This document shows positions 12,353 through 36,614 of a stretch of DNA of 64,000 bases, in pieces. The position numbers and the translations under genes are program-made. The number at the start of each line of letters is the position of its first letter. The stretch's first letter is position 1. The notes below the pieces were generated by a model. That model saw only the letters and a program-made list of their open reading frames with translations, was not told where the DNA came from and made no database searches. The DNA comes from Alphaproteobacteria bacterium. GTDB taxonomy: Bacteria > Pseudomonadota > Alphaproteobacteria > JBBDQX01. Location: contig OZ271840.1 in NCBI GenBank assembly GCA_965601735.1, positions 1,080,402-1,144,401 of the forward strand. Reading direction: 5' to 3'.

Positions 12353-13243
12353 TTAAGCACCCTTCTCGTCGAAGCTGACGTCCGCCCACTCTTCCCAGAG
12401 CGTTGCCAGCACCGCGTAGTCCTGCTCCCCCAGCCCGGCCGCTTCCGCCAGCTCATAAGGGGTGTGGGCGGCCAGCGTCGCGAACAGCGGCACGCCAAGC
12501 TGCTGGGCGGTCTCCAGCGCCAGCACGGAATCCTTGCGCGCGTTTGACACTGACATACCGCCCGCGTAGTCGCCCGCCAGCATGCGCTCGGCGACCCGAT
12601 GCAGCAGCGGTCGCATCAGCGCCTCGGGGCGGCCAAGAATGTCGACCATGGTGCGCTCGGGGATGCCGAGCTTCGACGACATGGCGAAGGCTTCGATCAG
12701 CACCACCATCAGCGCATGCATCACCCCGTTATGGACAACCTTTGCCCCCATGCCCGCGCCGATAGGCCCAAGATCGACCACCCGGTCTGTGACCGGCGCC
12801 AGAACATCGCGTGCCTGTTGCTTGGCGTCGTCGTCACCGCCAAGGAAGAAGACAATCTCGCCCGCGGCCATGCTCGCCACCCCGCCGGCGATCGCGGCAT
12901 CGACAAACCCGGTACCGGCCTCGGCGCAGGCGGCGGCGCAGGCCTGGGCGGTCTGGGGGGTAACGGTGCTGGTCTCGACAATCAATGCCGGACGATTGTT
13001 GCCAGCCAACAGGGCCTCGACCGTCGCGGTCGAGGCTTCCGGTTTCGGTAGCGACAAGATCACGACATGCGCCCCGGCGGCGACCGCATCAAGCGAGTCC
13101 ACTGCTGTGATGCCAGCCTCGGCCGCGGCGCCGCGCCGTGCCGGGTCGAGGTCATAGCCGACCACCGGCACCTGGCGTTGCATCGCTGTGGCGACAGCAA
13201 GCCCCGCGTTGCCGAGACCGACCAGCCCGACGGCCTTGGTCAC
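12353..13243 (-). CDS. NAD(P)-dependent oxidoreductase, 3-hydroxyisobutyrate / 6-phosphogluconate dehydrogenase-like family
   Basis: 296 aa. N-terminal GLVGLGNAG Rossmann motif and the conserved GAGMGAK.V.N of the HIBADH/tartronate-semialdehyde reductase family. Confidence 0.7.
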   Translation of the reverse strand: MTKAVGLVGLGNAGLAVATAMQRQVPVVGYDLDPARRGAAAEAGITAVDSLDAVAAGAHVVILSLPKPEASTATVEALLAGNNRPALIVETSTVTPQTAQACAAACAEAGTGFVDAAIAGGVASMAAGEIVFFLGGDDDAKQQARDVLAPVTDRVVDLGPIGAGMGAKVVHNGVMHALMVVLIEAFAMSSKLGIPERTMVDILGRPEALMRPLLHRVAERMLAGDYAGGMSVSNARKDSVLALETAQQLGVPLFATLAAHTPYELAEAAGLGEQDYAVLATLWEEWADVSFDEKGA

Positions 13244-13590
13244 TGTGCGCCGCCGCCTTCGTTCTCGACCGCGAATCGCATCAGCTCGCGAAACATCTCG
13301 AACACCTTGTCGAGGAAGGCGAGCTGGCGCTCCTTCTCGGCCTGCTCGTTGGCGGTGCGTTCGGCGTTGAGCTGCTCATAGCTGCGCTGTGGCGCGCTGA
13401 CCGCCTCGCTGGAGGTGGCGCACAACAGCCGTTCGCCCTGGAGCGTGCAGACCGAGATTTCACCGGTCTGCTTGTCGAGCCGCCAGACCCGGTTCTCGGT
13501 GGCCTCGACGATCTGATAGCGGTCGGCGTCCGCGGCGGCGGCCGGCGTGGTCAGGGCAAGGGCGAGGGCAGCGAGGATCAGCATCCGCAT
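13240..13590 (-). CDS. Hypothetical small secreted protein
   Basis: 116 aa with signal peptide MRMLILAALALALTTPAAAA, two Cys, and a charged C-terminal half. 4-nt overlap with the upstream dehydrogenase gene suggests co-transcription. Confidence 0.4.
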   Translation of the reverse strand: MRMLILAALALALTTPAAAADADRYQIVEATENRVWRLDKQTGEISVCTLQGERLLCATSSEAVSAPQRSYEQLNAERTANEQAEKERQLAFLDKVFEMFRELMRFAVENEGGGAQ

Positions 13591-13771: not shown

Positions 13772-13838
13772 GGTGGTGTCTCAAGACGGTTGTCTGACAG
13801 GGCCGCAGTCTAGCCGGGAACTGTCGCCGTGGGCCATG

Positions 13839-14369: not shown

Positions 14370-14843
14370 GTGGCGAAGCACGATCTGCGGTCCCTGCGGG
14401 TTTTGATCGTCGATGACGATGCGGAGTCCCGCAAGCTGATGCTGGACTACCTGTCCGACATGGGCGTTAGCCAGGCCTATGAGGCGCCGGGCGGCGAAGA
14501 GGCGTTGGCGTTTCTCCAGTCCGCCCGGGTCGACCTTGTGATCTCCGATATCCGCATGTCGCCGATGAGCGGCGACGCCTTTGTGCGCGCGTTGCGCAGC
14601 GACGATGCCAACGCCAGCAAGCTGGTGCCGGTGATGATGGTCACCGAAGGACCTGACGCGACCAGCATTGAGGCAGCGAAGCGCGCCGGCGTCACTGCGC
14701 TGGTGGTAAAGTCATCGCGCTTCGAGGAATTCCACGGCCATGTGATCGGCACGCTGACACGCGCCGGCATCATTGCGCCCGACCGCGACGGGCTGAGCGC
14801 CATCGGTCCGGTCGATAACCCGGTGGGTAAATCCTGGGATTGA
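14370..14843 (+). CDS. Single-domain response regulator (CheY-like receiver)
   Basis: GTG start preceded by GAGGAG. Receiver signatures: acidic pocket DDD and phospho-acceptor D in VISDIRM. Confidence 0.7.
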   Translation: MAKHDLRSLRVLIVDDDAESRKLMLDYLSDMGVSQAYEAPGGEEALAFLQSARVDLVISDIRMSPMSGDAFVRALRSDDANASKLVPVMMVTEGPDATSIEAAKRAGVTALVVKSSRFEEFHGHVIGTLTRAGIIAPDRDGLSAIGPVDNPVGKSWD

Positions 14844-14856
14844 GGAGTCCGGCGGC

Positions 14857-16473
14857 CTACTGGCCACCGGCAGTCCAGAACGGTGGCGTTGCCGCGAAGG
14901 TGTGCCAGTCCTCGACCATCCGACGCTCCGACGCGGTGAGCTGGTGGCCGTACCAGCCAATCACCAGACCGGCGGCCCGCTCCAGTTCGGTTGCGGCCTT
15001 GCGGGGCTTGCGTACAGTGAGCGCGCTCAGCAGTTCCTCCGCCACGGCGACATCATTGAGTGCGCCCAGGTCCTCCTGCAGCGCCTCCAGCGCCATCAGG
15101 TAGGCGCGCGACCGGCGCTTCGGATAAAGGCCTCGGAAGAACTCGGTCGCGTAGCGCAGTTTCTTCACCGCGATCCGCAAGCGGTGACGGTCGGGCATCG
15201 ACAGATGCTCAAATCCCTTGCCAAGCCGCATCGCCCGCTTGTGGCGCTTACTGAGCAGCGCGCCGGCAAAGCGTTCCAGCGGCTGGTCAAGCGTGGCTGC
15301 CGCGGTCTCCTCGGCGCGCCAGCCGCGCGTCTCCATCCAGGCGCACAGCTTGAGCAGGAAGGTGGTGTATCGCGGCGCTGTGATGACCGCCCGTGCCTGG
15401 TCGTATCCGTCCGCTACGTTCGCTTCCGCCAGTGCCTTGAGCGCCTGGAGGCCCGCATCATCGCCGCGGTGATCGATGACTGGCGGCAGGGTTGTATTGA
15501 CGAATACGTCCCAGTCTCGCGCATTGCCGAGCCCTTGCGCGGCCCATCGCGCATCGTCGTTGAAGGCGCCGAAGTCGCCCGGCGTGATCACATCGCGGAA
15601 CAGCGCCAGTACCGAGCGGAAACGTCGCAGGCCAACGCGCATCTGGTGCACGCCTTCCGGGTCCCGCCCATCGAGCACGGCGGCCTCGTTGGCGGTCCAG
15701 TGGTCGAGGCAACTGCGCAGGGTCTGCTCCAGCGCTTGCTCCACGGTCGCGCTACGCCGCAGGGCCGGCTTGTCCGACTTGCGGCAGGGCGGAGGCGTGC
15801 CAGTCGCCAGCAGGTAGCCGCGGGCCGATTTGCTCAACGTCTCGACCCGCAGCGGGCTGACCGCGTGCAGATCCAGTGCCAGGTCGAAGAGCGCGCCCGG
15901 CCCACCACGCAGCAGCTCCAGTTCGACCTCGCATATCGGCGACTTGCCACGGGTGGTACGGATTTCGCCTTCGTCGAAACAGATTTCGACTACCCCGTCG
16001 GGATCCTGACTGTTCAGCACCTGTTTCTTGCGGCGCACGGTGCCGGTGAACACCCGTTTCAGGCTGTCCGCATCAATGCCGTCGAGCCAAGCCCGGGCAT
16101 GCGGATCAACGAACGCCGTGAGGTCGAGGGCGAATTTCGGCACCTCGACCTGCCATTCGCCACGGCGCTGTAACCCGCCTGCCGGCCCATCGCCGGACTT
16201 CAGGGTCTGCACATAACGCGGGCCTTCCTGGCGCACGCGCAGTGCCAGCCCGCGGGCGCGCAGGTCGAAGTTGGCGGTGTCGAAATAGGCATAGCGCAGG
16301 CGCTGCTCGACCCCATGCCCAACGGCACGACTGAGCAACGGCTCAGAGGTTGCCAGCGCCGCCAGCGCCTTCCTGTCCGCAGCGAGCTTGAGTTCAACTT
16401 CGAAGTTGTCTGGCGGCGTAAACTCGGGGGCTGCTTCCACCCCGGCGCTGCCGTCCGCAGGTCTGGTCCGCAA
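14857..16473 (-). CDS. CYTH (triphosphatase-like) plus CHAD domain protein
   Basis: 538 aa. N-terminal FEVELKLAA / EVELEL CYTH-type EXEXK strands, and a long alpha-helical CHAD C-terminal half with conserved His/Arg. Confidence 0.7.
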   Translation of the reverse strand: MRTRPADGSAGVEAAPEFTPPDNFEVELKLAADRKALAALATSEPLLSRAVGHGVEQRLRYAYFDTANFDLRARGLALRVRQEGPRYVQTLKSGDGPAGGLQRRGEWQVEVPKFALDLTAFVDPHARAWLDGIDADSLKRVFTGTVRRKKQVLNSQDPDGVVEICFDEGEIRTTRGKSPICEVELELLRGGPGALFDLALDLHAVSPLRVETLSKSARGYLLATGTPPPCRKSDKPALRRSATVEQALEQTLRSCLDHWTANEAAVLDGRDPEGVHQMRVGLRRFRSVLALFRDVITPGDFGAFNDDARWAAQGLGNARDWDVFVNTTLPPVIDHRGDDAGLQALKALAEANVADGYDQARAVITAPRYTTFLLKLCAWMETRGWRAEETAAATLDQPLERFAGALLSKRHKRAMRLGKGFEHLSMPDRHRLRIAVKKLRYATEFFRGLYPKRRSRAYLMALEALQEDLGALNDVAVAEELLSALTVRKPRKAATELERAAGLVIGWYGHQLTASERRMVEDWHTFAATPPFWTAGGQ

Positions 16474-23301: not shown

Positions 23302-24075
23302 CTAGGCGTCAGCCGCAGGCAGTCCGGCACGCGCCCGCAGGGATGGATCGCGGATCGATAGCTCCTGTCCGGCGAGGTCGGCGGCCTCTTCGCTGCAAAG
23401 CCATGCTACCGCGCGGCCCGGCTGCCAGGCCGGGGCGAGGTTCTCGCGCGGAATCTGGCTGACCCGGTTTATTCCTGACGCCCGGATCTGGACCTGCATG
23501 TCGGTGTCGACCGTACCGGGCCCGAAGCCGTACACGCGGATGCCCTGCGTGCCGTATTCCAGCGCCGTGGCGCGGGTCAGCATGGCGACCCCCGCCTTGG
23601 CGCTGCAATAGGCGGCCCAGCCTTCCAGCGGGTTGTGCGCGGCGCCGGAACTGATGTTGACGATCACCCCGCCGCCCGCGGCCTGCATCCGGGGCAGCAC
23701 GGCATGGATGCCGTGATAGACCCCCAGCAGGTTGACCGCGATGTTGTTCGCCCAGGCGGCTGGATCGGAATCCGCCAGTGCCCCGATCGGTTCGACCATG
23801 CCGGCGTTGTTGATCAGGATGTCGGGCCCGCCCAGGCGCTCCGCAGTCTCGGCGATCAGACCGGCGACCTGGTCCGGGTCGGACACGTCACAGGCCATCG
23901 CCTCCGCAGTACCGCCCGCGGCGCGGATCTCATCGGCGTTCCCGGCGCAGGCTTCCACCGAGCGTGCCGCCAGAACCACCGCCGCTCCGGCGGCCGCCAG
24001 TTCTGTCGCCACCGCCTGGCCGATGCCGCGGCTTGCCCCGGTCACGATCGCTGTCTTGCCTGCCAGTGCTGTCAT
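23302..24075 (-). CDS. SDR-family short-chain dehydrogenase/reductase
   Basis: TGASRGIG Rossmann motif, NNAG, and catalytic S...YxxxK (YCSAKAG). Confidence 0.75.
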   Translation of the reverse strand: MTALAGKTAIVTGASRGIGQAVATELAAAGAAVVLAARSVEACAGNADEIRAAGGTAEAMACDVSDPDQVAGLIAETAERLGGPDILINNAGMVEPIGALADSDPAAWANNIAVNLLGVYHGIHAVLPRMQAAGGGVIVNISSGAAHNPLEGWAAYCSAKAGVAMLTRATALEYGTQGIRVYGFGPGTVDTDMQVQIRASGINRVSQIPRENLAPAWQPGRAVAWLCSEEAADLAGQELSIRDPSLRARAGLPAADA

Positions 24076-24130
24076 GTCATGTTCTCCCCGCCTGATGCGG
24101 CGGGCAGTCTACGCCACGGCGCGTCGCCGG

Positions 24131-24784
24131 TCAGCCAACGGTGGTGAAGGTGAGGGTGAAGGCGTAGCCGCGATAGAGGTCGCGGTCCTCCAGCCGGCCG
24201 CGGCCGGAATCGGCAAGCGCATGGAAATGGTCGCGGAGGTCGGGGATCGGCGCGACTCCGAACAGCGCGAGCCAGCGCCGCAGCCCTCGCTGGAAGCTGC
24301 GGGGCAGCCGGTTCTGGGTGCCGAAATCAACCACGGCGATGGTACCGCCCGGCCTTACTGCCGCAAGCGCACGGTCGGCCGCCGGGCGCCATTCCGGGAA
24401 GATGCTGAAGGCGTAAGAAAACAGCAGCATATCGAATGGCTTGTCCTCTCCGAACATTGCTGTGGCATCCACCGACTCCGCCAGGCCATGGGTGAGACGG
24501 ATCTGGCTCGTCACCCCGGCGCGGCGCAGGTTGCGCTGCGCCGTCGCCAACATGGCCTCCGAGGCATCTACACCGAAAAAGTGCGCCTGCGGGTGCCGCT
24601 GTGCCAGCCGCGCCAGGTTGCGTGCGGTACCACAGCCGACCTCGCAAACTCTGTCGCCTGGCGTGATCACCAGTTCATCGAGCATGCGGTCGCGGCCCAG
24701 CAGGTAGAACTTCCGGCTGGCGTCGTAGATGTGACGCTGCAGCCGGTACATGCGGTCCATGCGGACGCTGGTGGCGTCGATCAT
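24131..24784 (-). CDS. btaB: SAM-dependent N-methyltransferase, BtaB-like (DGTS synthesis)
   Basis: Track ORF trimmed to M74 (216 aa). Class I MTase motif VCEVGCGTARN. Lies 11 nt downstream of the BtaA-like gene, as in known btaAB operons. Confidence 0.6.
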   Translation of the reverse strand: MIDATSVRMDRMYRLQRHIYDASRKFYLLGRDRMLDELVITPGDRVCEVGCGTARNLARLAQRHPQAHFFGVDASEAMLATAQRNLRRAGVTSQIRLTHGLAESVDATAMFGEDKPFDMLLFSYAFSIFPEWRPAADRALAAVRPGGTIAVVDFGTQNRLPRSFQRGLRRWLALFGVAPIPDLRDHFHALADSGRGRLEDRDLYRGYAFTLTFTTVG

Positions 24785-24795
24785 GGGCGCGGTCC

Positions 24796-26016
24796 TCAGG
24801 CGGCGGGCGCGTTGCTGTAAATGTGAAAGCCGCCGTAGATGGCTGAGCGGTCCTGGGCGTGCAGCTGGCGCGCGAGGTCGCTCTCGGCGGTCCAGTGGCC
24901 CATCAGCTCGGGCGCCAGCGCGTCCTCCAGCGGCGAGTGCTCCGCGGCGGTGCGGAAGATCACCCGCGAGCCTGGCCGCGCGGTGCGGTCGATCTGGGTC
25001 CACAGAGCGTTGAGTTGGGCATCGTCCATCCAGTCCTGGGCGTCCAGCAGGACATAGCGATCGAAGCTGCCGTCCTCGGATTCCGCCAGGTAGTCGGTCA
25101 TCGAGGCATGCTCGACCCGCGCGCGGTCGGCGCGGCTACTCAAGGTGCCGAAGTTCTCCGCACGCAGATAGTCGGGCACTGCCTGACGTTCATCGCGGTC
25201 GTAATTGCGGCTGAACGCCTGCCAGGCGAAGTAGTTCTCGGAGATCGGGAAGTCGCAGGCCAGCCGCCGCACTCGCTCGCGAAACAGGGACGCGACATCG
25301 CCCGCCGCCTCGGCGCTGAGCAGGCCGAACTGCGCTGGCGGGATACCCAGGCTGTAGGTCGTGACCGGCAGCCGGCAGGCGGCGCGCACCACCTTGAGGT
25401 CGAACAGCGGCGCAATGATCTCCTCGAACAGCGCCGCCTGTTCCTCCAGCGTCTTGGCGCGCAGCAGCCGTGACGGGTGCCGTCCGGCGACTCTGCAAAA
25501 GCGATGCAGCCAGCCGATATACTGGCCCAGCAGCGACCGGCGGTAGATGCCGCTGGCGAAATAGTCGATGCGCCGGCGCACCAGCATCGGACGCTTGTCC
25601 CAGAATTCACGGGTGTGGTCGTCCAGGTGCTGCTGCAGATGAGTATCGTAGGCGGCGCGGTTGGCGCGGTCGTCGCCGGCGCCGAAGAAGCGGAAGAAAG
25701 TGTCATGGTCCGGCAGCCGCTGCGCCGCCTGCACCTTGAGCCGGGTCAGTGCCACATGCGCCGGGTTGAGGTCGAGCGCGACAATGGCGGATGGTTCTGC
25801 CAGCAGGTAGTTCATCACGTTGCAGCCGCCAGAGGCGATGGTGATGATCCGGCTTTCGGGGGTGATCCGCAGCGCTGTCAGGTCGACGCGCGGATCCTCC
25901 CAGATCTGGTTGTAGACGAACCGGCGGAAGGCCAGGGTGAACAGCCGGTCCAGCATGCCCTTCCGGGTGATCGCCGGGCTGTTGTAGACCGCCTTGTTGA
26001 GCAGGTTCGATGCCAT
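24796..26016 (-). CDS. btaA: S-adenosylmethionine:diacylglycerol 3-amino-3-carboxypropyl transferase, BtaA-like (DUF3419)
   Basis: Track ORF trimmed to M63 (405 aa, SD AAGGAGTGAG). Conserved FVYNQIWEDPRVD...IASGGCN region typical of BtaA/DUF3419. Confidence 0.65.
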   Translation of the reverse strand: MASNLLNKAVYNSPAITRKGMLDRLFTLAFRRFVYNQIWEDPRVDLTALRITPESRIITIASGGCNVMNYLLAEPSAIVALDLNPAHVALTRLKVQAAQRLPDHDTFFRFFGAGDDRANRAAYDTHLQQHLDDHTREFWDKRPMLVRRRIDYFASGIYRRSLLGQYIGWLHRFCRVAGRHPSRLLRAKTLEEQAALFEEIIAPLFDLKVVRAACRLPVTTYSLGIPPAQFGLLSAEAAGDVASLFRERVRRLACDFPISENYFAWQAFSRNYDRDERQAVPDYLRAENFGTLSSRADRARVEHASMTDYLAESEDGSFDRYVLLDAQDWMDDAQLNALWTQIDRTARPGSRVIFRTAAEHSPLEDALAPELMGHWTAESDLARQLHAQDRSAIYGGFHIYSNAPAA

Positions 26017-26029
26017 CTCTCTCACTCCT

Positions 26030-26800
26030 TTAGAACAGCGACAATTGCCGGCTTTCGGCCCAGCGCAGAATCTCCAGACGGCCGTCGTGATGCTCCACCA
26101 GCGCGGTGCAGCTCTCCACCCAATCACCGTCGTTGCAGTAGAGGACGCCGTCGACATCAGTGATCTCCGCGGCGTGGATATGGCCGCAGACGACCCCGTC
26201 ATAGCCGCGGCGGCGCGCCTCGTGGGCCACCGCCTCGCGGTAGTTGCTGATGAACTGAACGGCGTTCTTGACCTTCGTCTTCATGTAGCCGGCGAGCGAC
26301 CAGTAAGGAAAACCGAGCATGCGGCGCGCCCGGTTGAAGACCGCGTTGGCGTACATCGTTGTTTCGTAGGCAGCATCGCCCAGCAGGGCGAGCCACTTGG
26401 CGTAGCGCACCACGCCGTCGAAAGCGTCGCCATGCAGCACCAGCAGCCGGCGGCCGTCCGCCGTCACATGGGTGGCATCATCCTGCAAGGTCAGCGCGCC
26501 GAAGCTGAATTCTGTGTACAGCCGCATGCATTCGTCATGGTTGCCGGGCACATAAATCACCCGGGTCCCCTTGCGGCCCTTGCGCAGGATCTTCTGGATC
26601 ACGTCATTGTGGCTTTGGCGCCAGAACCACGAACGGCGCAGCCGCCACCCGTCAACGATATCGCCGGTCAGGTAGAGGTACTGGGACTCTGTGTGGCGGA
26701 AAAAATCCAACAGGATATCGGCCTTGCAACCCCGCGTGCCGAGGTGGATGTCCGAAATCCAGATGGCCCGGTAGTGCGTCGCCACGGCGGAGTTGGACAC
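26030..26800 (-). CDS. LpxH-like calcineurin-type metallophosphoesterase; candidate phosphate-starvation phospholipase C (PlcP-like)
   Basis: 256 aa. Metallophosphoesterase motifs ISDIHLG, GDIVD, GNHD, and GH...GHIH. The stop lies 13 nt upstream of the btaA start. Confidence 0.6.
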   Translation of the reverse strand: MSNSAVATHYRAIWISDIHLGTRGCKADILLDFFRHTESQYLYLTGDIVDGWRLRRSWFWRQSHNDVIQKILRKGRKGTRVIYVPGNHDECMRLYTEFSFGALTLQDDATHVTADGRRLLVLHGDAFDGVVRYAKWLALLGDAAYETTMYANAVFNRARRMLGFPYWSLAGYMKTKVKNAVQFISNYREAVAHEARRRGYDGVVCGHIHAAEITDVDGVLYCNDGDWVESCTALVEHHDGRLEILRWAESRQLSLF

Positions 26801-27030
26801 CTAGATGCTTCGGCAGAACGGCAACATGTGGTGGCTTATACATTCGCCCCCACGACATATCGGTCACCGCTCCGTGAATTTTTTCTTGTGGGATCGCGGC
26901 GGTTTTGTTGCCGCGGGTCCGCTTGCAAGCACTCCGGCGAAGGCGGACAATAGATGGATTGCGCGCCGCCTTTGCCGCATCGGCAGAGGCGCGCGCATGT
27001 GTGTCTTTAGCCGCGGCAGGGTCGGACCGG

Positions 27031-28725
27031 ATGTCCACCGTTTCCAGCGCGAACCCGGATCAGCAGGTACACGCTGCGCAGCAGCAGCGTGACCGGTTCC
27101 TGGCGTTTGCGTTCGCCGCGGCCGATGTGCTGATCGAGACCAACGACAAAGGCCACATCCAGTATTGCGCCGGTGCTACCGAGAACCTGTTCGGTGAGCC
27201 GGTTGAGACCCTGGTTGGGATGACGCTGGCCACCTCGGTCGCCGAGGAAGACAAGGTGATGCTCGACGCGGCGATGGCGCGGCTGCGCGCTACCGGTCGG
27301 ATCGAGCGCCTGAGCATTGCCATCAATCATAAGACCGGCGGTCAGACGGTGACCGAACTCAACGGCATTATGCTGCCGCAGCGTCCCGGCATTTGCAGCT
27401 TGGTACTGCGGTTCGCCCGCTCCGCCGGCGGCGCGCAGCATCGCCACGTTCCGGCCGCAGGTGCCCTGACCAAGGACAGCTTCATCGAACTGGCCAAAGG
27501 CCGGCTCGCCGAGGGGGCGGCGCGGGGCGAGGATTACCGCCTCACCATGCTCGATCTGGAGAGTGAGGAATTCTACGAGCGACTCGGCACCGAGGGGGCC
27601 GAGCAGTTCGCCGACGACATCGAGGGACAGCTGCGGGCCTGGTCGGTAGCCGGCGCCTCGGTCGGCCGGCTCGCCACCGGCCCGACGGGCGAGGTCACGC
27701 GCTACGGTGTCATCCACGACGGCACCGTAGCTGCCGAGCAGCTCGAGGAACGCATCAACACCCTTGCCGCCGAGGCCGATCCGTCGGGCGAGGGGCTGGC
27801 GGTACAGAGCAACAGCGTCAGCTTCGAGGGCGGTGAGCTGAGTCCGGAGGAGATGGTCCAGGCGGTGGCTTACACCATCAACAAGTTCGCCGCGGAGGGT
27901 GGCTCCGATTCCGGCTTCGGCACCTTGGCCGACGGCTACAAGGCGATGCTCGACGACACCATCGCGCGGGTGCGAAAGTTCCGCACACTGACCGAGTCGG
28001 ATCAGTTCAGCTTCGTGTTCCAGCCGGTGGTCTCGCTACGCGAGTGGAAGGTGCACCACTTCGAGGTGCTGTCGCGCTTCGAGAAAGACGACTCCGGCGC
28101 TTCGCCTTACGACACCCTGGTGTTCGCCGAGGATATCGGCCTGGTCAGCGAGTTCGACCTAGCGGTACTCCGCAAGGCCATCGGTCTGTTGCAACAGGAC
28201 GACTTTCCCGCCGATACCTCTATTGCGGTGAACCTGTCGGGCCGCTCGCTGCTGAACCAGCGGTTCGTCTCCGAGTTGCTGTCCCTGCTGGCGCAGAATC
28301 GCGGCCTCAACAAGCTGCTGATGTTTGAGATCACCGAGTCCTTCGAGATCAAGGACCTGTCCAGTGCCAACAAGCTGCTGCAGGAGATCCGCAAGCAGGG
28401 CTTCACCGTTTGCCTCGACGATTTCGGCGCCGGGGCGGCGGCGTTCCAGTATCTGCGCAACCTGCAGATCGACTTCGTGAAGATCGACGGCAGCTACTTG
28501 CACGACGCCTTCGCCTCGCCCTTCGGCAAGTCATTCCTGCGCGCCATCGCCAACCTGTGCGCCGACCTCAAGCTCAGGACCATCGGCGAGATGGTCGAGG
28601 ACCAGCTGGCGCTCGACCTGCTCACCCAGATCGGTGTCGATATGGGTCAAGGCTATTTCCTCGGCGCGCCCCAGCCTACCGCGGACCCGGTGACCCTGCC
28701 GGCCCGCGCCAAGACCCGGCGCTGA
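27031..28725 (+). CDS. EAL-domain c-di-GMP phosphodiesterase with N-terminal sensory region
   Basis: Track ORF trimmed to M43. EAL signature residues present: EITES, DDFGAG, KIDGSY, and the E...Q loop. Predicted catalytically competent. Confidence 0.7.
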   Translation: MSTVSSANPDQQVHAAQQQRDRFLAFAFAAADVLIETNDKGHIQYCAGATENLFGEPVETLVGMTLATSVAEEDKVMLDAAMARLRATGRIERLSIAINHKTGGQTVTELNGIMLPQRPGICSLVLRFARSAGGAQHRHVPAAGALTKDSFIELAKGRLAEGAARGEDYRLTMLDLESEEFYERLGTEGAEQFADDIEGQLRAWSVAGASVGRLATGPTGEVTRYGVIHDGTVAAEQLEERINTLAAEADPSGEGLAVQSNSVSFEGGELSPEEMVQAVAYTINKFAAEGGSDSGFGTLADGYKAMLDDTIARVRKFRTLTESDQFSFVFQPVVSLREWKVHHFEVLSRFEKDDSGASPYDTLVFAEDIGLVSEFDLAVLRKAIGLLQQDDFPADTSIAVNLSGRSLLNQRFVSELLSLLAQNRGLNKLLMFEITESFEIKDLSSANKLLQEIRKQGFTVCLDDFGAGAAAFQYLRNLQIDFVKIDGSYLHDAFASPFGKSFLRAIANLCADLKLRTIGEMVEDQLALDLLTQIGVDMGQGYFLGAPQPTADPVTLPARAKTRR

Positions 28726-28774
28726 CCCCGGCGATCGCCGTGGCGCGTCCCGCCGCGTGGAGGCGGCAGACGGC

Positions 28775-30034
28775 ATGGCGTTTCTCGACCGATTCCAGGG
28801 CTTCCGGCGCGCCTTCAGCCACCGCAACTATCGCTATTTCGCATCGGGCAGTGCGCTGTCGCAGATCGGCACCTGGATGCAACGCGTCGGGGTTGGCTGG
28901 CTCGCCTGGGAGCTGACCGGTTCGGGCGCTTGGCTCGGCGCCATTGCTTTCGCCGACATGTTCCCCACCGTCATCCTAGGGCCGGTAGCGGGCGCCATCG
29001 CGGATCGGCTCGACCGGCTGCTGCTATTACGCCTGACCCAGGCCCTCAATGCGCTGCAGGCGCTGGCGCTCACGGTCCTGGTCGCTTCGGGAACGGCGAC
29101 CATCGAATTGCTGGTTGGGCTGATGCTGCTGCGCGGGGTGATCCTCGCGATCAACCAGCCGGCGCGCCAGGCCCTGGTGCCCAGTCTGGTTGGACGCGAC
29201 GACATTGGACCGGCCATCGCCATCAATTCACTGATCTTCAACTGCGCCCGGTTCATCGGCCCCGCCATTGCCGGTTTCGTTATCGCCGCAGGCGGACTGG
29301 TCTGGGTCTTTGCGATTAATGCCGCGAGCTTCCTGCTGTTCGTGGTGATGCTCGCCTTCATCCGGTTGCCGCCGCACCGTCGTGCCGCGTCGGACAGCGG
29401 CCTGATCGCCGAGGCGGTCGAGGGCTATGGCTATGCGGCGCGTCACCCCGGCATCGGGCCTCTGATCCCGGTCCGCTTGCTCGCCGCCTTCGGTGCGCGG
29501 CCTGTGGTGGAAATGTTCCCTGGCATTGCCGACAAGGTGTTCGGCCAGGGGGCCGACGGCCTTGGTCTCATGCTGTCCGCGATGGGCGTCGGTGCCATCG
29601 CCGCCGGTCTCTACCTTGGCCAGCGCAGTGGTATCGCCGGTCTGACCCGGGTGCTGATCGCCAACCTATGCCTGATCGCGCTGGCGCTGCTCGCCTTCGG
29701 GGCGGTGGACGCCTTCCATCTTGCCCTGATCATCGTGCTGGTGCTGGGTTTCGCCCAGGTGCTCAACGGCGCCGGCACCCAGACCCTGGTGCAGTCGGCG
29801 GTGGACCCCGCAATGCGTGGCCGGGTGCTCGGCCTGTTCGGCCTGATCAACCGGGGCGGCCCTGCGCTGGGCGCTTTGGCGATGGGGGCGCTGGCCGACC
29901 GCTACGGTTTCGCCCTGCCGCTGTCGCTGGGCGCTATACTGTGTCTGCTTGCCTGCCTCTTCGCCGCGCTGCGCCGGCGGACGCTGGAACGCGCGCTGGA
30001 ACGCGCGCCTGCCGGCGGCCGCGGCAACCGGTAA
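28775..30034 (+). CDS. MFS transporter (EntS/MFS_3-like), paralog 1
   Basis: 12-TM MFS. N-terminal FRRAFSHRNYRYFASGSALSQIGTWMQRVGVGWLAWELTGS typical of the enterobactin-exporter-like MFS_3 family. Confidence 0.7.
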   Translation: MAFLDRFQGFRRAFSHRNYRYFASGSALSQIGTWMQRVGVGWLAWELTGSGAWLGAIAFADMFPTVILGPVAGAIADRLDRLLLLRLTQALNALQALALTVLVASGTATIELLVGLMLLRGVILAINQPARQALVPSLVGRDDIGPAIAINSLIFNCARFIGPAIAGFVIAAGGLVWVFAINAASFLLFVVMLAFIRLPPHRRAASDSGLIAEAVEGYGYAARHPGIGPLIPVRLLAAFGARPVVEMFPGIADKVFGQGADGLGLMLSAMGVGAIAAGLYLGQRSGIAGLTRVLIANLCLIALALLAFGAVDAFHLALIIVLVLGFAQVLNGAGTQTLVQSAVDPAMRGRVLGLFGLINRGGPALGALAMGALADRYGFALPLSLGAILCLLACLFAALRRRTLERALERAPAGGRGNR

Positions 30035-30086
30035 GCGCGGCGCGCCAGCCACTCCAGTGGGGACCCGGCGCCGAGCCGGGGCCGTC

Positions 30087-31340
30087 ATGAGCCTCTACGA
30101 CCGTTTCTCGGCTTTTTCCCGGGCCTTTCGACACCGCAATTACCGGCTCTATGCCGGCGGCAACGCCCTGTCGACCATCGGCCTGTGGATGCAGCGGGTC
30201 GGCGTCGGCTGGCTCGCCTGGGAGCTGACCGGCTCGGCGACCTGGCTCGGGCTGATCGCGTTCGCCGACATGTTCCCCACCGTTATCCTCAGCCCGCTCA
30301 CCGGGACGGTGACGGACCGCATCAACCGGCTGCGGCTGCTGCGGGTCACCCAGGCGCTCGTTGCTTTGCAGGCTTTGGCGCTGGCGGCGCTGATCTACCT
30401 CGATCACATCACCATCGTCTGGCTGCTGGCTCTGACCGTGGTGCGCGGCATCATTCTCGCGTTCAACCAGCCGGCGCGGCTGTCTCTGATTTCAGCCCTT
30501 GTCGGCACCGAGGATGTGGCGCCGGCGATTGCCATCAACGCGATGATCTTCAATGCGGCGCGCTTTGTCGGCCCGGCCATCGCCGGTGTGCTTCTGGTCG
30601 GCGGCGACACCTCGGCGCTGTTCGCGGTCAACGCCCTATGCTTCCTGTCCTTCTCGATAATGGCCGGCTTTGTGCAGCTGAATGAGCCGGACCGGCTGGC
30701 GCCCAAGGCCGGCCTGTTGCAGCAGACCCTGGAGGGCTACCGCTACGCCGCTGGTCATCAAGGCATCGGGCCACTGCTGCTGATGCTCTCGCTCACGGCG
30801 TTCGGCGCGCGGTCCTTTATCGAGCTGATGCCCGGGATCGCCGACGTGGTATTCGCGCGCGGGGCCGACGGGCTGGCCGCCCTGCTCGCGGTGATGGGCG
30901 TGGGCGCCATTGTCGGCGGGGCCTGGCTCGCCCAGCGCCCGACGCTGGATGGCCTGACCCGTGTGGTCATCACCAACCTGCTGATGCTGGCCGCCACCCT
31001 TTGTGCCTTTGCCGCGACCGGCATCTTCTGGGTCGGGCTAGTGGCGGTGTTCGTGCTCGGATTCGTGATCACCGTGAACGGTGCGGGGATCCAGACCTTG
31101 ATCCAGGCAGCGGTCGACGCGGAGGTGCGCGGGCGGGTGCTCGGCCTCTACGGCCTGATTGTGCGTGGTGCGCCGTCGATCGGCGCATTGCTGATGGGTG
31201 CCTTCGCCGAGCGCGTCGGCTTCGCCCTGCCCATGGTCTGCGGCGCGGCGATTTGCGTGCTGGCCTGGGGCCTCGCGACCCTGCGCCGCGGCCGCATGAC
31301 GCGGGCGCTGGAGCCCCGCGCCGCTGCGGCGCGGGACTGA
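30087..31340 (+). CDS. MFS transporter (EntS/MFS_3-like), paralog 2
   Basis: Trimmed to M47 (MSLYDRFSAFSRAFRHRNYRLYAGG...). Collinear and clearly paralogous to the upstream MFS gene. Confidence 0.7.
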   Translation: MSLYDRFSAFSRAFRHRNYRLYAGGNALSTIGLWMQRVGVGWLAWELTGSATWLGLIAFADMFPTVILSPLTGTVTDRINRLRLLRVTQALVALQALALAALIYLDHITIVWLLALTVVRGIILAFNQPARLSLISALVGTEDVAPAIAINAMIFNAARFVGPAIAGVLLVGGDTSALFAVNALCFLSFSIMAGFVQLNEPDRLAPKAGLLQQTLEGYRYAAGHQGIGPLLLMLSLTAFGARSFIELMPGIADVVFARGADGLAALLAVMGVGAIVGGAWLAQRPTLDGLTRVVITNLLMLAATLCAFAATGIFWVGLVAVFVLGFVITVNGAGIQTLIQAAVDAEVRGRVLGLYGLIVRGAPSIGALLMGAFAERVGFALPMVCGAAICVLAWGLATLRRGRMTRALEPRAAAARD

Positions 31341-31348
31341 CTCGCCGC

Positions 31349-32890
31349 TCAGCCGCGGCCGAAGCCGCCGCCGCCGGCGGTTTCCATCAACACGCTGTCG
31401 CCCTTGTGCAGCAGCTGGTGCTCAGCCACGTCGACCGGCTTGCCGTTGACCAGCACCTTGCCAGCGCGGCCATTGCCGCCGCCCATCAGGCCGCGCGGCG
31501 CGATGCGGATGCGGGTCATGATGAAGGAGCACAGGCCGGGCTCATCGCCCATGAAGTCGAAGCCGATGGAGATGCCCTGGCCACCCTTGTTCTTGCCGCG
31601 GCCGTTGCTCCGCGCGTTGAAGCCGCGGTGGCGGATCTTGATCGGCGCCAGCGACTCCATGACCTCGATGGGAGTATTGCCCAGATTTGACGGAAAGCTG
31701 ATCGCCGACTGACCGTCGCGCGCTGCATTGGCGCCCTGGCCGGCGTTGATGAAGTTCACCACCGCATAGCGCTGGCCCTTGTGGGCGCCGGTCATGGTGA
31801 AGGAGGAATTGGCGGATCCTTCCGCCAGCACACGGTCCGGCAGTACCGGCGCCAGGGCACCCATGATAGCCGGTACCATCATGTGCCCGATCATGCCGCG
31901 CGCACCGCTGGCGGCGGGGTAGCGCGGGTTGAAGATGGTGCCTTCCGGCGCCCAGGTCGAGACCGGCAGGAAGCTGCCCTCGTTGTTCGGGATGTCCGGT
32001 GACAGCAGCGCCTTCACCGCGTAGGCGGAGTAGGCGAATGTGTAGATCGGCACCACGTTGACCGAGCGGGGCAGCTGGGGCGAGGAGCCTGAGTAGTCGA
32101 TCGCCAGGTTGGTGCCCTTGATATTCACCTTGCAGTCGATGGTGATCGGATCCTCAAAGCCGTCATGCTGGATGACATAGCGGTAGTCGCCGTCAGGGAT
32201 GGCGCGGATCGCCTGGCGCATCGCCTTCTCGGAGCGGCCGCGCACTTCCTCGCCGAGGCGCGGCAGATCGAGGCCGGTCTCGTCGAGCAGCGCGCACAGC
32301 CTCTCGTCGAGCATCTGGCACGCCGCCACCTCGCCCCACACGTCGCCCATGGTCTGTGCCGGGACGCGCACGTTGCGTTCGATCATCTCGACCACCGCCT
32401 GGTCCGGCTTGCCCGCATGCATCAGCTTGAGGCGCGGGATCTGCAGCCCCTCCTCGAAGATCTCGCGGATGCCGGAATTGCGGATGCGCCCGCCAATGTC
32501 CGGCATGTGGCTGGTTACTGCCGCAAAGGCGACCGGCTTGCCCTTGTAGAAGATCGGCCGCGCGACGGTGATGTCATGCACATGGCCGGTGCCCATCCAG
32601 GGGTCGTTGGTAATCAGCACGTCGCCGTCCTTCAGCGTCTCCAGCGGGTAGACGTCCAGAAAGTGCTTCACCGTACGTGGCAGGGTGCCGATGAAAGACG
32701 GAATGCTCATGCTCGACTGCGCCAGCGACCGGCCCTGGGGATCGGTCAGAACCACGGCGAAATCGTTGGCCTCGCGCACCAGGGTCGAGAAGGAGGTGCG
32801 CACGAAGGTGGCGGATGCCTCGTCTACCATGCTCACGAGCCGGCCCCAGAGGACCTCGAGGGTGACGGGATCGAAGGTGGTCTTTGCCAT
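31349..32890 (-). CDS. Hydantoinase B / 5-oxoprolinase family protein (HyuB-like), copy 1
   Basis: 513 aa. Hydantoinase_B family: conserved N-terminus DPVTLEVLWGRLVSMVDEASATFVRTSFS and C-terminal GGGGFG. Confidence 0.75.
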   Translation of the reverse strand: MAKTTFDPVTLEVLWGRLVSMVDEASATFVRTSFSTLVREANDFAVVLTDPQGRSLAQSSMSIPSFIGTLPRTVKHFLDVYPLETLKDGDVLITNDPWMGTGHVHDITVARPIFYKGKPVAFAAVTSHMPDIGGRIRNSGIREIFEEGLQIPRLKLMHAGKPDQAVVEMIERNVRVPAQTMGDVWGEVAACQMLDERLCALLDETGLDLPRLGEEVRGRSEKAMRQAIRAIPDGDYRYVIQHDGFEDPITIDCKVNIKGTNLAIDYSGSSPQLPRSVNVVPIYTFAYSAYAVKALLSPDIPNNEGSFLPVSTWAPEGTIFNPRYPAASGARGMIGHMMVPAIMGALAPVLPDRVLAEGSANSSFTMTGAHKGQRYAVVNFINAGQGANAARDGQSAISFPSNLGNTPIEVMESLAPIKIRHRGFNARSNGRGKNKGGQGISIGFDFMGDEPGLCSFIMTRIRIAPRGLMGGGNGRAGKVLVNGKPVDVAEHQLLHKGDSVLMETAGGGGFGRG

Positions 32891-32928
32891 TTTTCGGTCT
32901 CTATCGTTTGCGGTTCGTTATCGGTTGT

Positions 32929-34482
32929 CTATCGGCGCGTGCGGCGGCCAAAGCCGCCGCCGCCAGCGGTCTCACAGAGCAGCCGGTCGCCCTGTTTCAG
33001 CACCCACTGGCGGGTATGGTCTATGGGCCGGCCGTTGAGCCGCAGCCGCCCGGCGCGGCCAGCCTCGCCGCCACGGAATCCGGCGGGCGGGATCGACAGG
33101 CGGGTCATCACAAAAGCGATCTGCGCCGGCGTCTTGCCGCGGTAGACAAATTCCTGGGCCTGGCCTTCGCCGCCACGATGGCGCCCATGCCCGCCGGAGC
33201 CGCGCCGCACCGCGCGGCGGGTCAGCAGGATCGGTGCCTCCGCTTCCATCATCTCCATCGGGAGGTTGGCGAGGTTCGACGGGAAGCTCTTCACCGTCAT
33301 GCCCGGCCCCTGGGCGCTGGCACCGTGGCCAGAGCCCATGAAAGCGACGAGTCCGAAGCGGTGGCCGTCCTCCTCGCCGCCCATGGCGAATGAACAGCTG
33401 CCGCCGCCGTCGGCGACCACCCGGTCCGGTACGATTTTCGCCAGCGCGCCCATGATCGCCGGCACCATCATGTGCCCGACCATGCCGCGCGCGCCGCTCG
33501 CCGCCGGATAGCGCGGGTTGAAGATGCTGCCCTCCGGCGCCCAGGTGCGGATCGGCGAAAAGCTGCCTTCGTTGTTCGGGATGTCCGGCGACAGGATCGC
33601 CTTTAGGGCGAACGCCGAGAAGGCGAAGGTGTAGTTGGGCACCACATTGACCGACTTCGGCAACTGCGGTGACGAGCCCGAATAGTCGATCGACAGGTCG
33701 GAGCCCTTGATGGCAATCGTGCAGTCGACGGTGGTCGGCTCCTCGAAGCCGTCATAGGCGACAACCCGGCGGTAGGTGCCATCAGGCAAGGCGCGGATCG
33801 CCGCACGCATCGCCTTCTCCGACCGGCTGCGCACCTCCGCGCCCAGGTCGGCGAGGTCGATGCCCGTCTCATCCAGCAGCCGGACCAGCCGCTCTTCCAG
33901 CATCCGCGCCGCGGCGACCTGGCCGTAGATATCGCCGATGGTCTGCTCGGGAACACGCACGTTGCGTTTGATGATCTCGATCACCGATTCGTCGGCTTTG
34001 CCCCGGCGCATCAGCTTGACCGGCGGCAGCTGCAGCCCTTCCTCGAAAATCTCGCGAATACCGCCGCTGCGCAGCCGCCCGCCGATGTCGGGCATGTGGC
34101 TCGTGATCGCGGCGATCGCCACCGGGCGGCCCTTGTAAAAGATCGGCGTGGCGATGTTCACATCGTGTACATGGCCGGTGCCGAGCCAGGGGTCGTTGGT
34201 CGCCAGCACGTCGCCGGGCTTCAGCGTGTCCAGCGGGAACAGCCGCAGCAAATGCTTCACGGTTGCCGGCAAGGTCCCGATGAAGGACGGAATCGACAGC
34301 GACGACTGCGCCAGCGACCGCCCCTTTGTGTCGGTCAGCACGATGGCGTAGTCGTTCGCCTCGCGCACCAGCATCGAGAACGAGGTGCGCACGAAGGTGG
34401 CCGCCGCCTCGTCAACCATGCTGACGAGGCGGGCCCACATTATCTCGAGGCTGACCGGATCGAGGGGCCGGCGCCGGGTCAT
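32929..34482 (-). CDS. Hydantoinase B / 5-oxoprolinase family protein (HyuB-like), copy 2
   Basis: Trimmed to M60 (517 aa). Collinear paralog of copy 1. ATGA overlap with the hyuA-like stop. Confidence 0.75.
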   Translation of the reverse strand: MTRRRPLDPVSLEIMWARLVSMVDEAAATFVRTSFSMLVREANDYAIVLTDTKGRSLAQSSLSIPSFIGTLPATVKHLLRLFPLDTLKPGDVLATNDPWLGTGHVHDVNIATPIFYKGRPVAIAAITSHMPDIGGRLRSGGIREIFEEGLQLPPVKLMRRGKADESVIEIIKRNVRVPEQTIGDIYGQVAAARMLEERLVRLLDETGIDLADLGAEVRSRSEKAMRAAIRALPDGTYRRVVAYDGFEEPTTVDCTIAIKGSDLSIDYSGSSPQLPKSVNVVPNYTFAFSAFALKAILSPDIPNNEGSFSPIRTWAPEGSIFNPRYPAASGARGMVGHMMVPAIMGALAKIVPDRVVADGGGSCSFAMGGEEDGHRFGLVAFMGSGHGASAQGPGMTVKSFPSNLANLPMEMMEAEAPILLTRRAVRRGSGGHGRHRGGEGQAQEFVYRGKTPAQIAFVMTRLSIPPAGFRGGEAGRAGRLRLNGRPIDHTRQWVLKQGDRLLCETAGGGGFGRRTRR

Positions 34483-36614
34483 TTCAGGGTGACGAGAACC
34501 GTCAGGTTCTTGAGGATCTCCACCGTCGCGGGGCGCGCGACAATCACCGTCGACTCCCGCTCCTGCAGCACCAGCGGCCCCTTCAGCTTGGTGCCGGCGG
34601 CCAGCGAGTAGCGGTGATAGACCGGCACGTCGCCGAACTTGCCCTTCTCCGGCAGCCACACCGGGCGCTTGCCGATCGGCGCGGCCTTCTTCTTGCCCTT
34701 GCCCGGCGCGTGGCGGCGGTCAGCGAGGGTGAAGTTGCGGGTCTTCACGTCGGAGCTGCCGGTCAGGCGCCAGGTCACCGCCTGCGGGACCGCGTTCGGC
34801 ACCGTCTGGCCGTAGAGCTGCTTGTAGCGCTCCTCGAACTGGGCAACGAGCTTCTTCGCCATGCCCGGGCCGACGTTCTTGTAAGGCAGATCGACCTGCA
34901 CGGTGTTGCCCTGGCCGGCGTAGCGGACCTCGACGCCGATGGTCCAGGTGATCTTCTCGCCGCGCGCGCCGGCGCTGCCGAGCTCGTCGCTGGCTTCCTT
35001 GTGGAGCCGGCCAAGCACCCGCTTGACCTCGTTCCAGTTGATGTCGTCGACCAGCGCCACCTTCGACCAGGAACGGTCGACGCGGGCCGGCGCCGCCAGC
35101 AGGCCGAGGCAGGAGCCCGCGCCCGCGGCGATGGTGCACATCACCTTCTTGATCTGCAGCTTGGCGGCGACCTCCACCGCATGGACCGGGCCGGCGCCGC
35201 CGGTGGCCACCATGGTGAAGGTGCGCGGGTCGAGGCCCTTCTCCGCGATATGGACGCGCGCAGCGGCGGCCATGTTCTCGCAGACCACGTTGTAGATGCC
35301 CCAAGCGACATCGTTGGTCTTCATGCCGAGCTTCTTGGCCAGGCTGCCGAGCGCCTTGTTGGCCAGACCGGTGTCGAGCTTCATCTCGCCGCCGAGGAAG
35401 TTGTCCGGGTCGAGATAGCCCAGCGACAGGCAAGCGTCGGTGACGGTGGCGTCCTTACCGCCCTGGCCGTAGCAGGCCGGGCCCGGCTGCGCGCCGGAGC
35501 TCTGCGGGCCGACGTTGAGCAGGCCGAGCTGGTTGACGTGGGCGATGGAGCCGCCGCCCGCGCCGATCTCGATCAGGTCGATCGACGGGATCAGGATCGG
35601 CAGGCCGCTACCCTTCTTGAAGCGGTGCACGCGGCCGGCCTCGAAGCTGTGGGCCAGCGCCGGCTCACCATTGACCGAGACGCAGGCCTTCGCGGTGGTA
35701 CCGCCCATGTCGAAGGCGAGCACATCCTTCACCTTGTTCTGCATCCCCGCATTGACCGCGCTGAGCACGCCGCCCGCGGGTCCGGATTCGAGCAGCAGGA
35801 TCGGCACCTCGGCTGCCGCCTTCGACGACGTAAAGCCGCCGCTGGACACCATGATGCGCAGGGGCCCCGGAATCTTGATCTCGCGCATCCGGCCTTCCAG
35901 CCGCGCCAGATACTTCTCCATCAGCGGCTGCACATAGGCGTTTGCGGTGGTGGTCGACATCCGCTCGTACTCGCGGATTTCACGTGCCACCTCCGACGAA
36001 ATGCTGACGCTGACACCCGGCAGGTGCTTCTTGATCAGCCGCTTGATCTTCTTCTCGTGGGCGTCGTTGACGTAGGCGTGCAGCAGGCAGACAGCGATGG
36101 CGTCGACGCCCTGCTTCTTCAGCTTGCCGACCAGCGAGACGATCTCCTTCTCGTCCAGCGGAGTCAGCACCTTGCCCTGAGCATCGAGGCGCTCGCTGGT
36201 CTCGTGGCGCAGCCGCGCCGGCACCAGCGGGTCCGGCAGTTCCAGGTTCAGGTCGTAGAGGTCGTAGCGAACCTCGCGGGCGATATCGAGGGCGTCCTTG
36301 GTGCCCTTGGTGACGATCAGGCCACTCTTCACGCCGTTGCGCTCAATGATCGTGTTGGTCACCAGGGTGGTGCCGTGCACCACTTCCGACACCTGGCCGG
36401 GATCGGTCTTGCCGCCGTCACCGGCAATTTGATTGAGCAGGGCAAGCGTGACATCGCTGACCGCGCGGCCGGGGTCGTCCGGAGTCGTCAGCAGCTTGCC
36501 GACCCAGATGCGGCCGCCGGGGACTTCCTCGGCGACGCCATCGGTGAAGGTACCGCCGATGTCGACGGCGATGCGGATTTGGGTCTTCGGCTTGCGGCTG
36601 GCTTTCTTGGCCAT
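34479..36614 (-). CDS. Hydantoinase A / 5-oxoprolinase family protein (HyuA-like)
   Basis: Trimmed to M68 (MAKKASRKPKTQIRIAVDIGGTFTDG, about 711 aa). The ASKHA-type DIGGTFTD N-terminus is characteristic of Hydantoinase_A proteins. The start coordinate is approximate. Confidence 0.75.
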   Translation of the reverse strand: MAKKASRKPKTQIRIAVDIGGTFTDGVAEEVPGGRIWVGKLLTTPDDPGRAVSDVTLALLNQIAGDGGKTDPGQVSEVVHGTTLVTNTIIERNGVKSGLIVTKGTKDALDIAREVRYDLYDLNLELPDPLVPARLRHETSERLDAQGKVLTPLDEKEIVSLVGKLKKQGVDAIAVCLLHAYVNDAHEKKIKRLIKKHLPGVSVSISSEVAREIREYERMSTTTANAYVQPLMEKYLARLEGRMREIKIPGPLRIMVSSGGFTSSKAAAEVPILLLESGPAGGVLSAVNAGMQNKVKDVLAFDMGGTTAKACVSVNGEPALAHSFEAGRVHRFKKGSGLPILIPSIDLIEIGAGGGSIAHVNQLGLLNVGPQSSGAQPGPACYGQGGKDATVTDACLSLGYLDPDNFLGGEMKLDTGLANKALGSLAKKLGMKTNDVAWGIYNVVCENMAAAARVHIAEKGLDPRTFTMVATGGAGPVHAVEVAAKLQIKKVMCTIAAGAGSCLGLLAAPARVDRSWSKVALVDDINWNEVKRVLGRLHKEASDELGSAGARGEKITWTIGVEVRYAGQGNTVQVDLPYKNVGPGMAKKLVAQFEERYKQLYGQTVPNAVPQAVTWRLTGSSDVKTRNFTLADRRHAPGKGKKKAAPIGKRPVWLPEKGKFGDVPVYHRYSLAAGTKLKGPLVLQERESTVIVARPATVEILKNLTVLVTLK

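Follow-up and report, generated by a model that had tools for sequence, protein, structure and literature searches.

A predicted plcP-btaA-btaB operon for betaine-lipid remodelling of the membrane in an alphaproteobacterium

The locus and its genes

Three adjacent genes on the minus strand of an alphaproteobacterial genome are considered here as a plcP-btaA-btaB operon for the remodelling of membrane lipids. They lie in a stretch of 64,000 nucleotides (GenBank assembly GCA_965601735.1, contig OZ271840.1, positions 1,080,402 to 1,144,401), which is called the window below and from whose first letter all positions are counted. The first gene, plcP (26800..26030), starts with GTG and encodes a calcineurin-type, LpxH-like metallophosphoesterase of 256 residues, predicted to be an intracellular phospholipase C of the PlcP type. 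The second, btaA (26016..24796), encodes a DUF3419 protein of 406 residues, the predicted S-adenosylmethionine (SAM):diacylglycerol 3-amino-3-carboxypropyl transferase, and the third, btaB (24784..24131), encodes a protein of 217 residues predicted to be the SAM-dependent diacylglycerylhomoserine N-methyltransferase. A spacer of 13 nucleotides (26017..26029), in which the Shine-Dalgarno sequence AGGAG can be read at 26029..26025, separates plcP from btaA, and one of 11 nucleotides (24785..24795) separates btaA from btaB. A first-pass annotation of this DNA had placed the three reading frames and both gaps exactly so, its lengths of 405 and 216 residues for the BtaA-like and BtaB-like proteins each being off by a trivial single residue.

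Both btaA and btaB begin with ATG; the plcP reading frame ends in TAA and that of btaA in TGA, and the GC content at third codon positions is 0.84 for plcP and btaA, as is usual for real genes in this window of 66% GC. The GTG of plcP lies directly 3′ of an in-frame TAG (26803..26801), as had also been noted in the first pass, and a longer reading frame is impossible. Since, moreover, the number of residues from this GTG to the conserved YRxIWISD motif is the same as in 18 aligned homologues, the start is credible. By eye alone, no obvious signal peptide was seen at the N-terminus of the plcP product.

The gene 5′ of plcP encodes an EAL-domain protein and is divergent, with its ATG at 27031, so that the interval 26801..27030 constitutes a shared promoter region. 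The short gaps of 13 and 11 nucleotides, together with this single divergent promoter, imply one transcript, which would probably start in the promoter region and span plcP, btaA and btaB.

The three protein families

The plcP product matches the calcineurin-type domains Metallophos and Metallophos_2 (PF00149 and PF12850; 50 bits for Pfam Metallophos). The calcineurin motifs DxH, GDxxD, GNHD/E, H and GHxH are intact, and the metal-binding residues D17, H19, D47, N87, H123, H207 and H209 are invariant in an alignment of 20 sequences. Its family comprises at least 8000 database proteins, and the 17 members that were aligned are 67-72% identical to it. The Sinorhizobium meliloti sequences used for comparison throughout come from PLSDB record CP090106.1 (loci L081 and L082), of strain Ak57. 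In this record, a metallophosphoesterase of 281 residues encoded beside sinR/sinI is 54% identical to the plcP product over 241 residues with 0 gaps (E 1e-99), and we take it, from its neighbourhood and the locus-tag numbering, to be SMc00171. SMc00171 has been named as the S. meliloti phospholipase C PlcP (PMC3596328). The start of btaA 13 nucleotides after plcP further links the phosphoesterase to a predicted non-phosphorus lipid synthase that consumes diacylglycerol.

The same protein fits poorly with LpxH, the lipid A enzyme. The NCBIfam LpxH equivalog models score it far below their cut-offs (NF003743, 38.6 bits against 134; TIGR01854, 31.0 against 190), and its BLASTP alignment with Escherichia coli LpxH is confined to the N-terminal 122 residues, of which 24% are identical (E 5e-5). 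A single-sequence phmmer search of the PDB returned 0 matches at E<=0.01, despite the many deposited LpxH structures; these were reached only by a profile of 19 family members, at about 30 bits and E about 1e-6, and are the closest solved structures. The family positions W58, W60 and Q62 and the segment DWVESC (226-231) are invariant in the family and present here, yet absent from LpxH, which forms the outgroup of a published PlcP tree (PMC9239053). What the two enzymes have in common is the calcineurin-like fold family and the metal-binding motifs (LpxH in PDB 6PH9, 5B49 and 5K8K); their identity is about 20-24%, and LpxH acts in lipid A synthesis, whereas the plcP product would act on phospholipid head groups. 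The first-pass assignment of the metallophosphoesterase to the PlcP class rather than to LpxH thus stands, on the gapless 54% match to the S. meliloti PlcP locus and the sub-threshold LpxH models.

The btaA product aligns with nearly the entire PF11899 (DUF3419) profile (positions 7-384 of 385) at 359.8 bits (E 2.6e-107; gathering cut-off 28.2). Its identity is 47% with the product of the S. meliloti btaA locus, 45-51% with those of other rhizobial btaA loci, each of which is followed by btaB, and only 24-26% with other DUF3419 paralogues. Judged by these identities, it groups with the characterised S. meliloti BtaA among the btaB-linked orthologues and not with another DUF3419 paralogue, and its earlier designation as a DUF3419, BtaA-like protein proved correct. 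Close database homologues are named BtaA or SAM-diacylglycerol 3-amino-3-carboxypropyl transferase (JGI, NCBI).

The btaB product is a class I SAM methyltransferase (Pfam Methyltransf_25, 62 bits; also Methyltransf_31, 12 and 11) and has the profile expected of BtaB, a methyltransferase of about 210-235 residues encoded directly after btaA. It is 45% identical to the product of the S. meliloti gene directly 3′ of btaA (E 3e-58), which is the sole match at E<=1e-8 in the 3.7-Mb chromosome. The similarity is therefore specific to BtaB and not that of a generic methyltransferase, in agreement with the first-pass label of this small protein as BtaB-like.

The comparator record itself is of some interest. 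Its label reads ‘Sinorhizobium meliloti Ak57 plasmid pSymB’, but its length is 3.72 Mb, and plcP and btaAB are found on it along with genes for an acyl-homoserine-lactone synthase and a LuxR-type regulator, which we presume to be sinI and sinR. Given its size and sinI/sinR, the record must be the chromosome rather than pSymB. The btaA gene of Ak57 lacks an annotation, and its match falls into two pieces, so that it may carry a frameshift or be a pseudogene.

Public names do little to reveal the pathway. Homologues of the plcP product are labelled ‘UDP-2,3-diacylglucosamine diphosphatase/LpxH’ by both JGI and NCBI, and together with ‘DUF3419’ and ‘class I SAM-dependent methyltransferase’ such names mask a pathway that is already known. 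PlcP-family genes on plasmids or chromids of Mitsuaria, Ralstonia, Sphingomonas, Roseomonas and Pseudomonas aeruginosa, 54-62% identical to plcP here, all bear the name UDP-2,3-diacylglucosamine diphosphatase, so that the family is systematically misnamed.

Proposed pathway and known systems

The chemistry of the three families has been worked out elsewhere: PlcP converts phosphatidylethanolamine (PE), its monomethylated form (MMPE) and phosphatidylcholine (PC) into diacylglycerol (DAG) and a phosphoalcohol, BtaA combines DAG with SAM to give diacylglycerylhomoserine (DGHS), and BtaB methylates DGHS three times to give diacylglyceryltrimethylhomoserine (DGTS; PMC3972451). By the same route, the plcP product would act in the cytoplasm as a metal-dependent, LpxH-like phosphodiesterase that cuts the phosphoalcohol head group from phospholipids of the PC/PE type, leaving DAG. 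BtaA would then transfer the 3-amino-3-carboxypropyl group of SAM onto this DAG, and BtaB would methylate the amino group of the resulting DGHS in three SAM-dependent steps to form the phosphorus-free betaine lipid DGTS. Through such remodelling the cell would free phosphorus while keeping a zwitterionic bilayer lipid, and the expected trigger of the operon would be phosphate starvation. We place the probability that the locus is a three-gene operon for membrane-lipid remodelling at about 85%. The first-pass proposal of a module that degrades phospholipid and builds DGTS is likewise supported, in that each attempt to refute it that could be run came out in its favour.

The closest precedent is the “type 1” plcP context, in which btaA and btaB come after plcP (Sebastián et al., ISME J 2016, PMC4796936). 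In Phaeobacter sp. MED193, DGTS is the major lipid under phosphorus starvation; deletion of plcP abolishes DGTS, and complementation, even by the SAR11 plcP, restores it (PMC4796936). The working definition of PlcP in that study is a BLASTP match at E<1e-40 to the MED193 protein (MED193_17359). The MED193 cluster agrees with the locus described here in its gene trio, in its order with plcP first and in the proposed flow from phospholipid through DAG to DGTS, a likeness drawn from the published description. The two differ in other respects. In MED193, deletion and complementation established that plcP takes part in DGTS formation, whereas here such a role is predicted from the genes; the MED193 genes are reported with a predicted Pho box (PMC4796936), whereas no canonical box is present here; and MED193 is a different alphaproteobacterium, the best protein matches of the present genes being Stellaceae, Roseospira and Ferrovibrio-like. 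Because the phosphoesterase homologues on Rhodobacteraceae plasmids share only 32-36% identity with the plcP product, the two operons may have been assembled independently.

Sinorhizobium meliloti offers a second comparison, at the level of the proteins. Its PlcP (SMc00171) and BtaA/BtaB (SMc01848/SMc01849) are orthologous to the three proteins here (54%, 47% and 45% identity, respectively) and act in the same pathway (PMC3972451), and their genes are regulated by PhoB (PMC3972451, PMC3596328). In that species, plcP and btaAB lie about 390 kb apart, each with its own PHO-box-like site, whereas here they form a single predicted operon that lacks a canonical box. A third group, the plcP-agt operons of SAR11 HTCC7211, Methylosinus trichosporium OB3b and P. 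aeruginosa, likewise uses PlcP to feed DAG to a non-phosphorus lipid synthase, but the consumer of DAG there is a GT4 glycosyltransferase rather than the betaine-lipid enzymes BtaA and BtaB.

The plcP-btaA-btaB arrangement has thus already been published and genetically tested in other bacteria, of which the present operon is an ordinary further example, and current understanding is unchanged by it. What it adds is the prediction that this alphaproteobacterium can exchange phospholipids for the betaine lipid DGTS, a trait relevant to survival where phosphorus is scarce.

Gene order in relatives

The gene order was surveyed in 80 genome loci, the nearest relatives of BtaA, whose proteins are 50-61% identical to the btaA product here. 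Of these, 74 have a BtaB match directly after btaA; among the six that do not, some are cut off by a contig edge just past btaA. The order plcP-btaA-btaB recurs in the closest metagenomic relative (BtaA 65% and PlcP 68% identical), in which the end of plcP shares 4 nucleotides with the beginning of btaA; the loci L083 and L084 have the order seen in the window.

Close PlcP homologues (60-69% identity) adjoin either agt-like GT4 genes or btaAB (L085, L089, L053 and L067). In L085 and L089, plcP is followed by an agt-like GT4 gene, and L085 further contains a divergent DAGK_cat-GT4-btaA-btaB unit; in L088 and L090, plcP stands alone. This is the same range of “types” as in the catalogue of plcP contexts published by Sebastián et al. 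(PMC4796936). Among the relatives, plcP is linked in a patchy way to btaAB, to agt-like GT4 genes and to DAGK_cat genes, which suggests that remodelling modules have been reshuffled repeatedly.

Several of these loci are mosaic lipid-remodelling islands (L085:832-6876, L089:2877-5824, L053:1227-5852, L067:4001-7796 and L005:2961-5865) that mix plcP, agt-like GT4 and btaA-btaB genes. Twice, a divergent DAGK_cat/YegS-like lipid kinase gene stands beside plcP, a recurrent pairing that may reflect a common role in the handling of DAG. The L089 island also adjoins pstS-like and permease genes. In the window itself, no agt-like GT4 or DAGK_cat gene was found elsewhere.

Predicted phosphate control and the promoter region

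Some observations weigh against the reading of this locus as a phosphate-responsive remodelling operon. Only 2 of the 80 surveyed loci have a plcP homologue within 4 kb of btaAB, both times in another order: L053 has a plcP and GT4 glycosyltransferase unit divergent from btaAB, and L067 has btaA-btaB-plcP-GT4. The linkage of plcP to btaAB is therefore neither ancestral nor universal. The S. meliloti comparator strain is Ak57, whereas the strain tested by experiment is 1021. In the divergent promoter region, a PHO-box matrix reaches at best 6.9 bits and a canonical box is absent, and the one candidate there is a weak triple half-site that was recognised by a post hoc criterion.

This matrix, 22 nucleotides long, was built from 21 sites of relatives, which themselves score 13-24 bits; 54 positions in the window equal or beat 6.9 bits, and the first-pass failure to recognise a canonical PHO box in 26801..27030 is hence borne out. 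The matrix had been preceded by a de novo expectation-maximisation search of the 250 nucleotides upstream of btaA in 76 loci, whose motifs resembled neighbouring coding sequence and were dropped; a count of dyads with coding controls, along with the matrix from the best sites, took its place. PHO-box-like dyads of TGTCAY-like hexamers 11 bp apart are clear in related loci, for example upstream of S. meliloti plcP (TGTCATCATCCTGAAAC) and in L083 (TGTCATCTGACTGACTC) and L067 (TGTCATTAAATGGTCAT). In relatives, 30 of the 76 stretches upstream of btaA contain a dyad with a score of at least 9 out of 12, as against 14 of 228 coding controls.

Within the promoter region, a weak candidate PhoB site can be discerned at 26852..26879 on the minus strand (ATTCACGGAGCGGTGACCGATATGTCGT). 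Its half-sites ATTCAC, GGTGAC and TGTCGT stand in exact 11-bp phase and match the TGTCAY-like pattern at 4, 4 and 5 of 6 positions, respectively. The site lies about 70-80 nucleotides before the plcP start codon, a position like that of the S. meliloti plcP box. A triple half-site score of at least 13 occurs 4 times in 128 kb; among dinucleotide-shuffled versions of the region, 0.9% contain one when the same strand is counted and 2.6% when either strand is. As the three-repeat criterion was set after the site had been seen, the candidate is to be taken as a lead and not as a result. Eleven nucleotides downstream of the last half-site, a −10-like hexamer, TATAAG, can be read at 26835..26840 (minus strand), and this spacing fits the layout of E. 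coli PhoB promoters. A sigma-70 consensus promoter scan of the region found none; it demands a −35 element and a −10 hexamer that ends in T, and so missed TATAAG.

Phosphate control is what we infer for the operon from its family. The alternative is that the module makes DGTS without PhoB, either constitutively or in answer to some other cue, for instance one that also acts on the divergent EAL gene (a cyclic di-GMP phosphodiesterase). The 6.9-bit maximum of the matrix, set against the 13-24 bits of the relatives’ sites, speaks for this alternative, as does the finding that no pst or pho genes lie near the cluster. We nevertheless regard it as unlikely, considering that the three phased half-sites are suitably placed upstream of TATAAG and are infrequent among shuffles, that their position resembles that of the S. 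meliloti plcP box, that relatives have an excess of PHO-like dyads upstream of btaA, and that alphaproteobacterial PHO boxes are often degenerate. Furthermore, the characterised plcP and btaAB genes are all induced by phosphate starvation (PMC3972451, PMC4796936). The absence of a canonical PHO box does prompt a bolder proposal, namely that the operon has escaped PhoB control and that DGTS synthesis, coupled to phospholipid breakdown, follows some other signal in this lineage, which the EAL gene might share. We consider such an escape distinctly doubtful; were it true, betaine-lipid remodelling would here serve something other than the sparing of phosphorus.

Apart from this operon, the best match of the relatives-derived matrix in the window lies at 13780..13801 on the minus strand (CCTGTCAGACAACCGTCTTGAG, 16.1 bits). 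It is intergenic, upstream of a 116-residue reading frame without a Pfam match (13590..13240) and of two NAD-dependent dehydrogenase genes.

Other products and other enzymes

A further question is whether the enzymes do what their families do. The btaA-btaB pair could stop at DGHS, methylate it partially or use another acceptor lipid, so that the product is not DGTS, or the PlcP-like enzyme could cut a different phosphodiester. The activities are predicted here from sequence, and the match to those rhizobial enzymes that have been characterised is moderate (45-54% identity), which leaves some room for such departures. The alignments, however, run over the full length with few gaps, the btaA-btaB pairing is nearly universal among the surveyed loci, and no alternative function for the orthologous group is given in PMC4796936 or PMC3972451; we therefore think it very improbable that the enzymes depart from their families in any of these ways. 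Lastly, that the metallophosphoesterase is a bona fide LpxH lying beside btaAB by chance, as the public names and the profile match to LpxH structures would have it, is rejected as scarcely credible in view of the sub-threshold equivalog scores, the 24% identity to LpxH against 54% to S. meliloti PlcP, the empty single-sequence PDB search, the family residues that LpxH lacks, its place as outgroup, and close homologues that adjoin DAG-consuming lipid genes and not lpx genes.

Surroundings of the operon

The neighbouring genes in the window, which encode SDR, GSCFA-TPR, EAL and MFS proteins, are unrelated to btaAB. They were considered as parts of the module and rejected, since some 90 related loci show no conserved linkage of these genes and the domains that they encode are unrelated. 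A terminator scan 3′ of btaB gave no convincing candidate. The 55-nucleotide gap between btaB and the SDR gene (24076..24130, minus strand; SDR gene, 24075..23302) contains a 6-bp GC hairpin, CCCGCC-GCATCA-GGCGGG, that is not followed by a T-run, and the SDR gene may for this reason be transcribed by read-through from the operon; in relatives, it has no linkage to btaAB.

Next to the EAL gene, two pairs of tandem paralogues are found, one of Hydantoinase_B/oxoprolinase genes and one of MFS_3 transporter genes (31349..34659, minus strand, and 28757..31340, plus strand). Farther away, a two-domain CYTH-CHAD protein (14857..16473, minus strand), whose domains are associated with triphosphate and polyphosphate, adjoins a stand-alone response-regulator receiver (14370..14843, plus strand). 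No link of this pair to the lipid cluster is established, and it is possibly phosphate-related.

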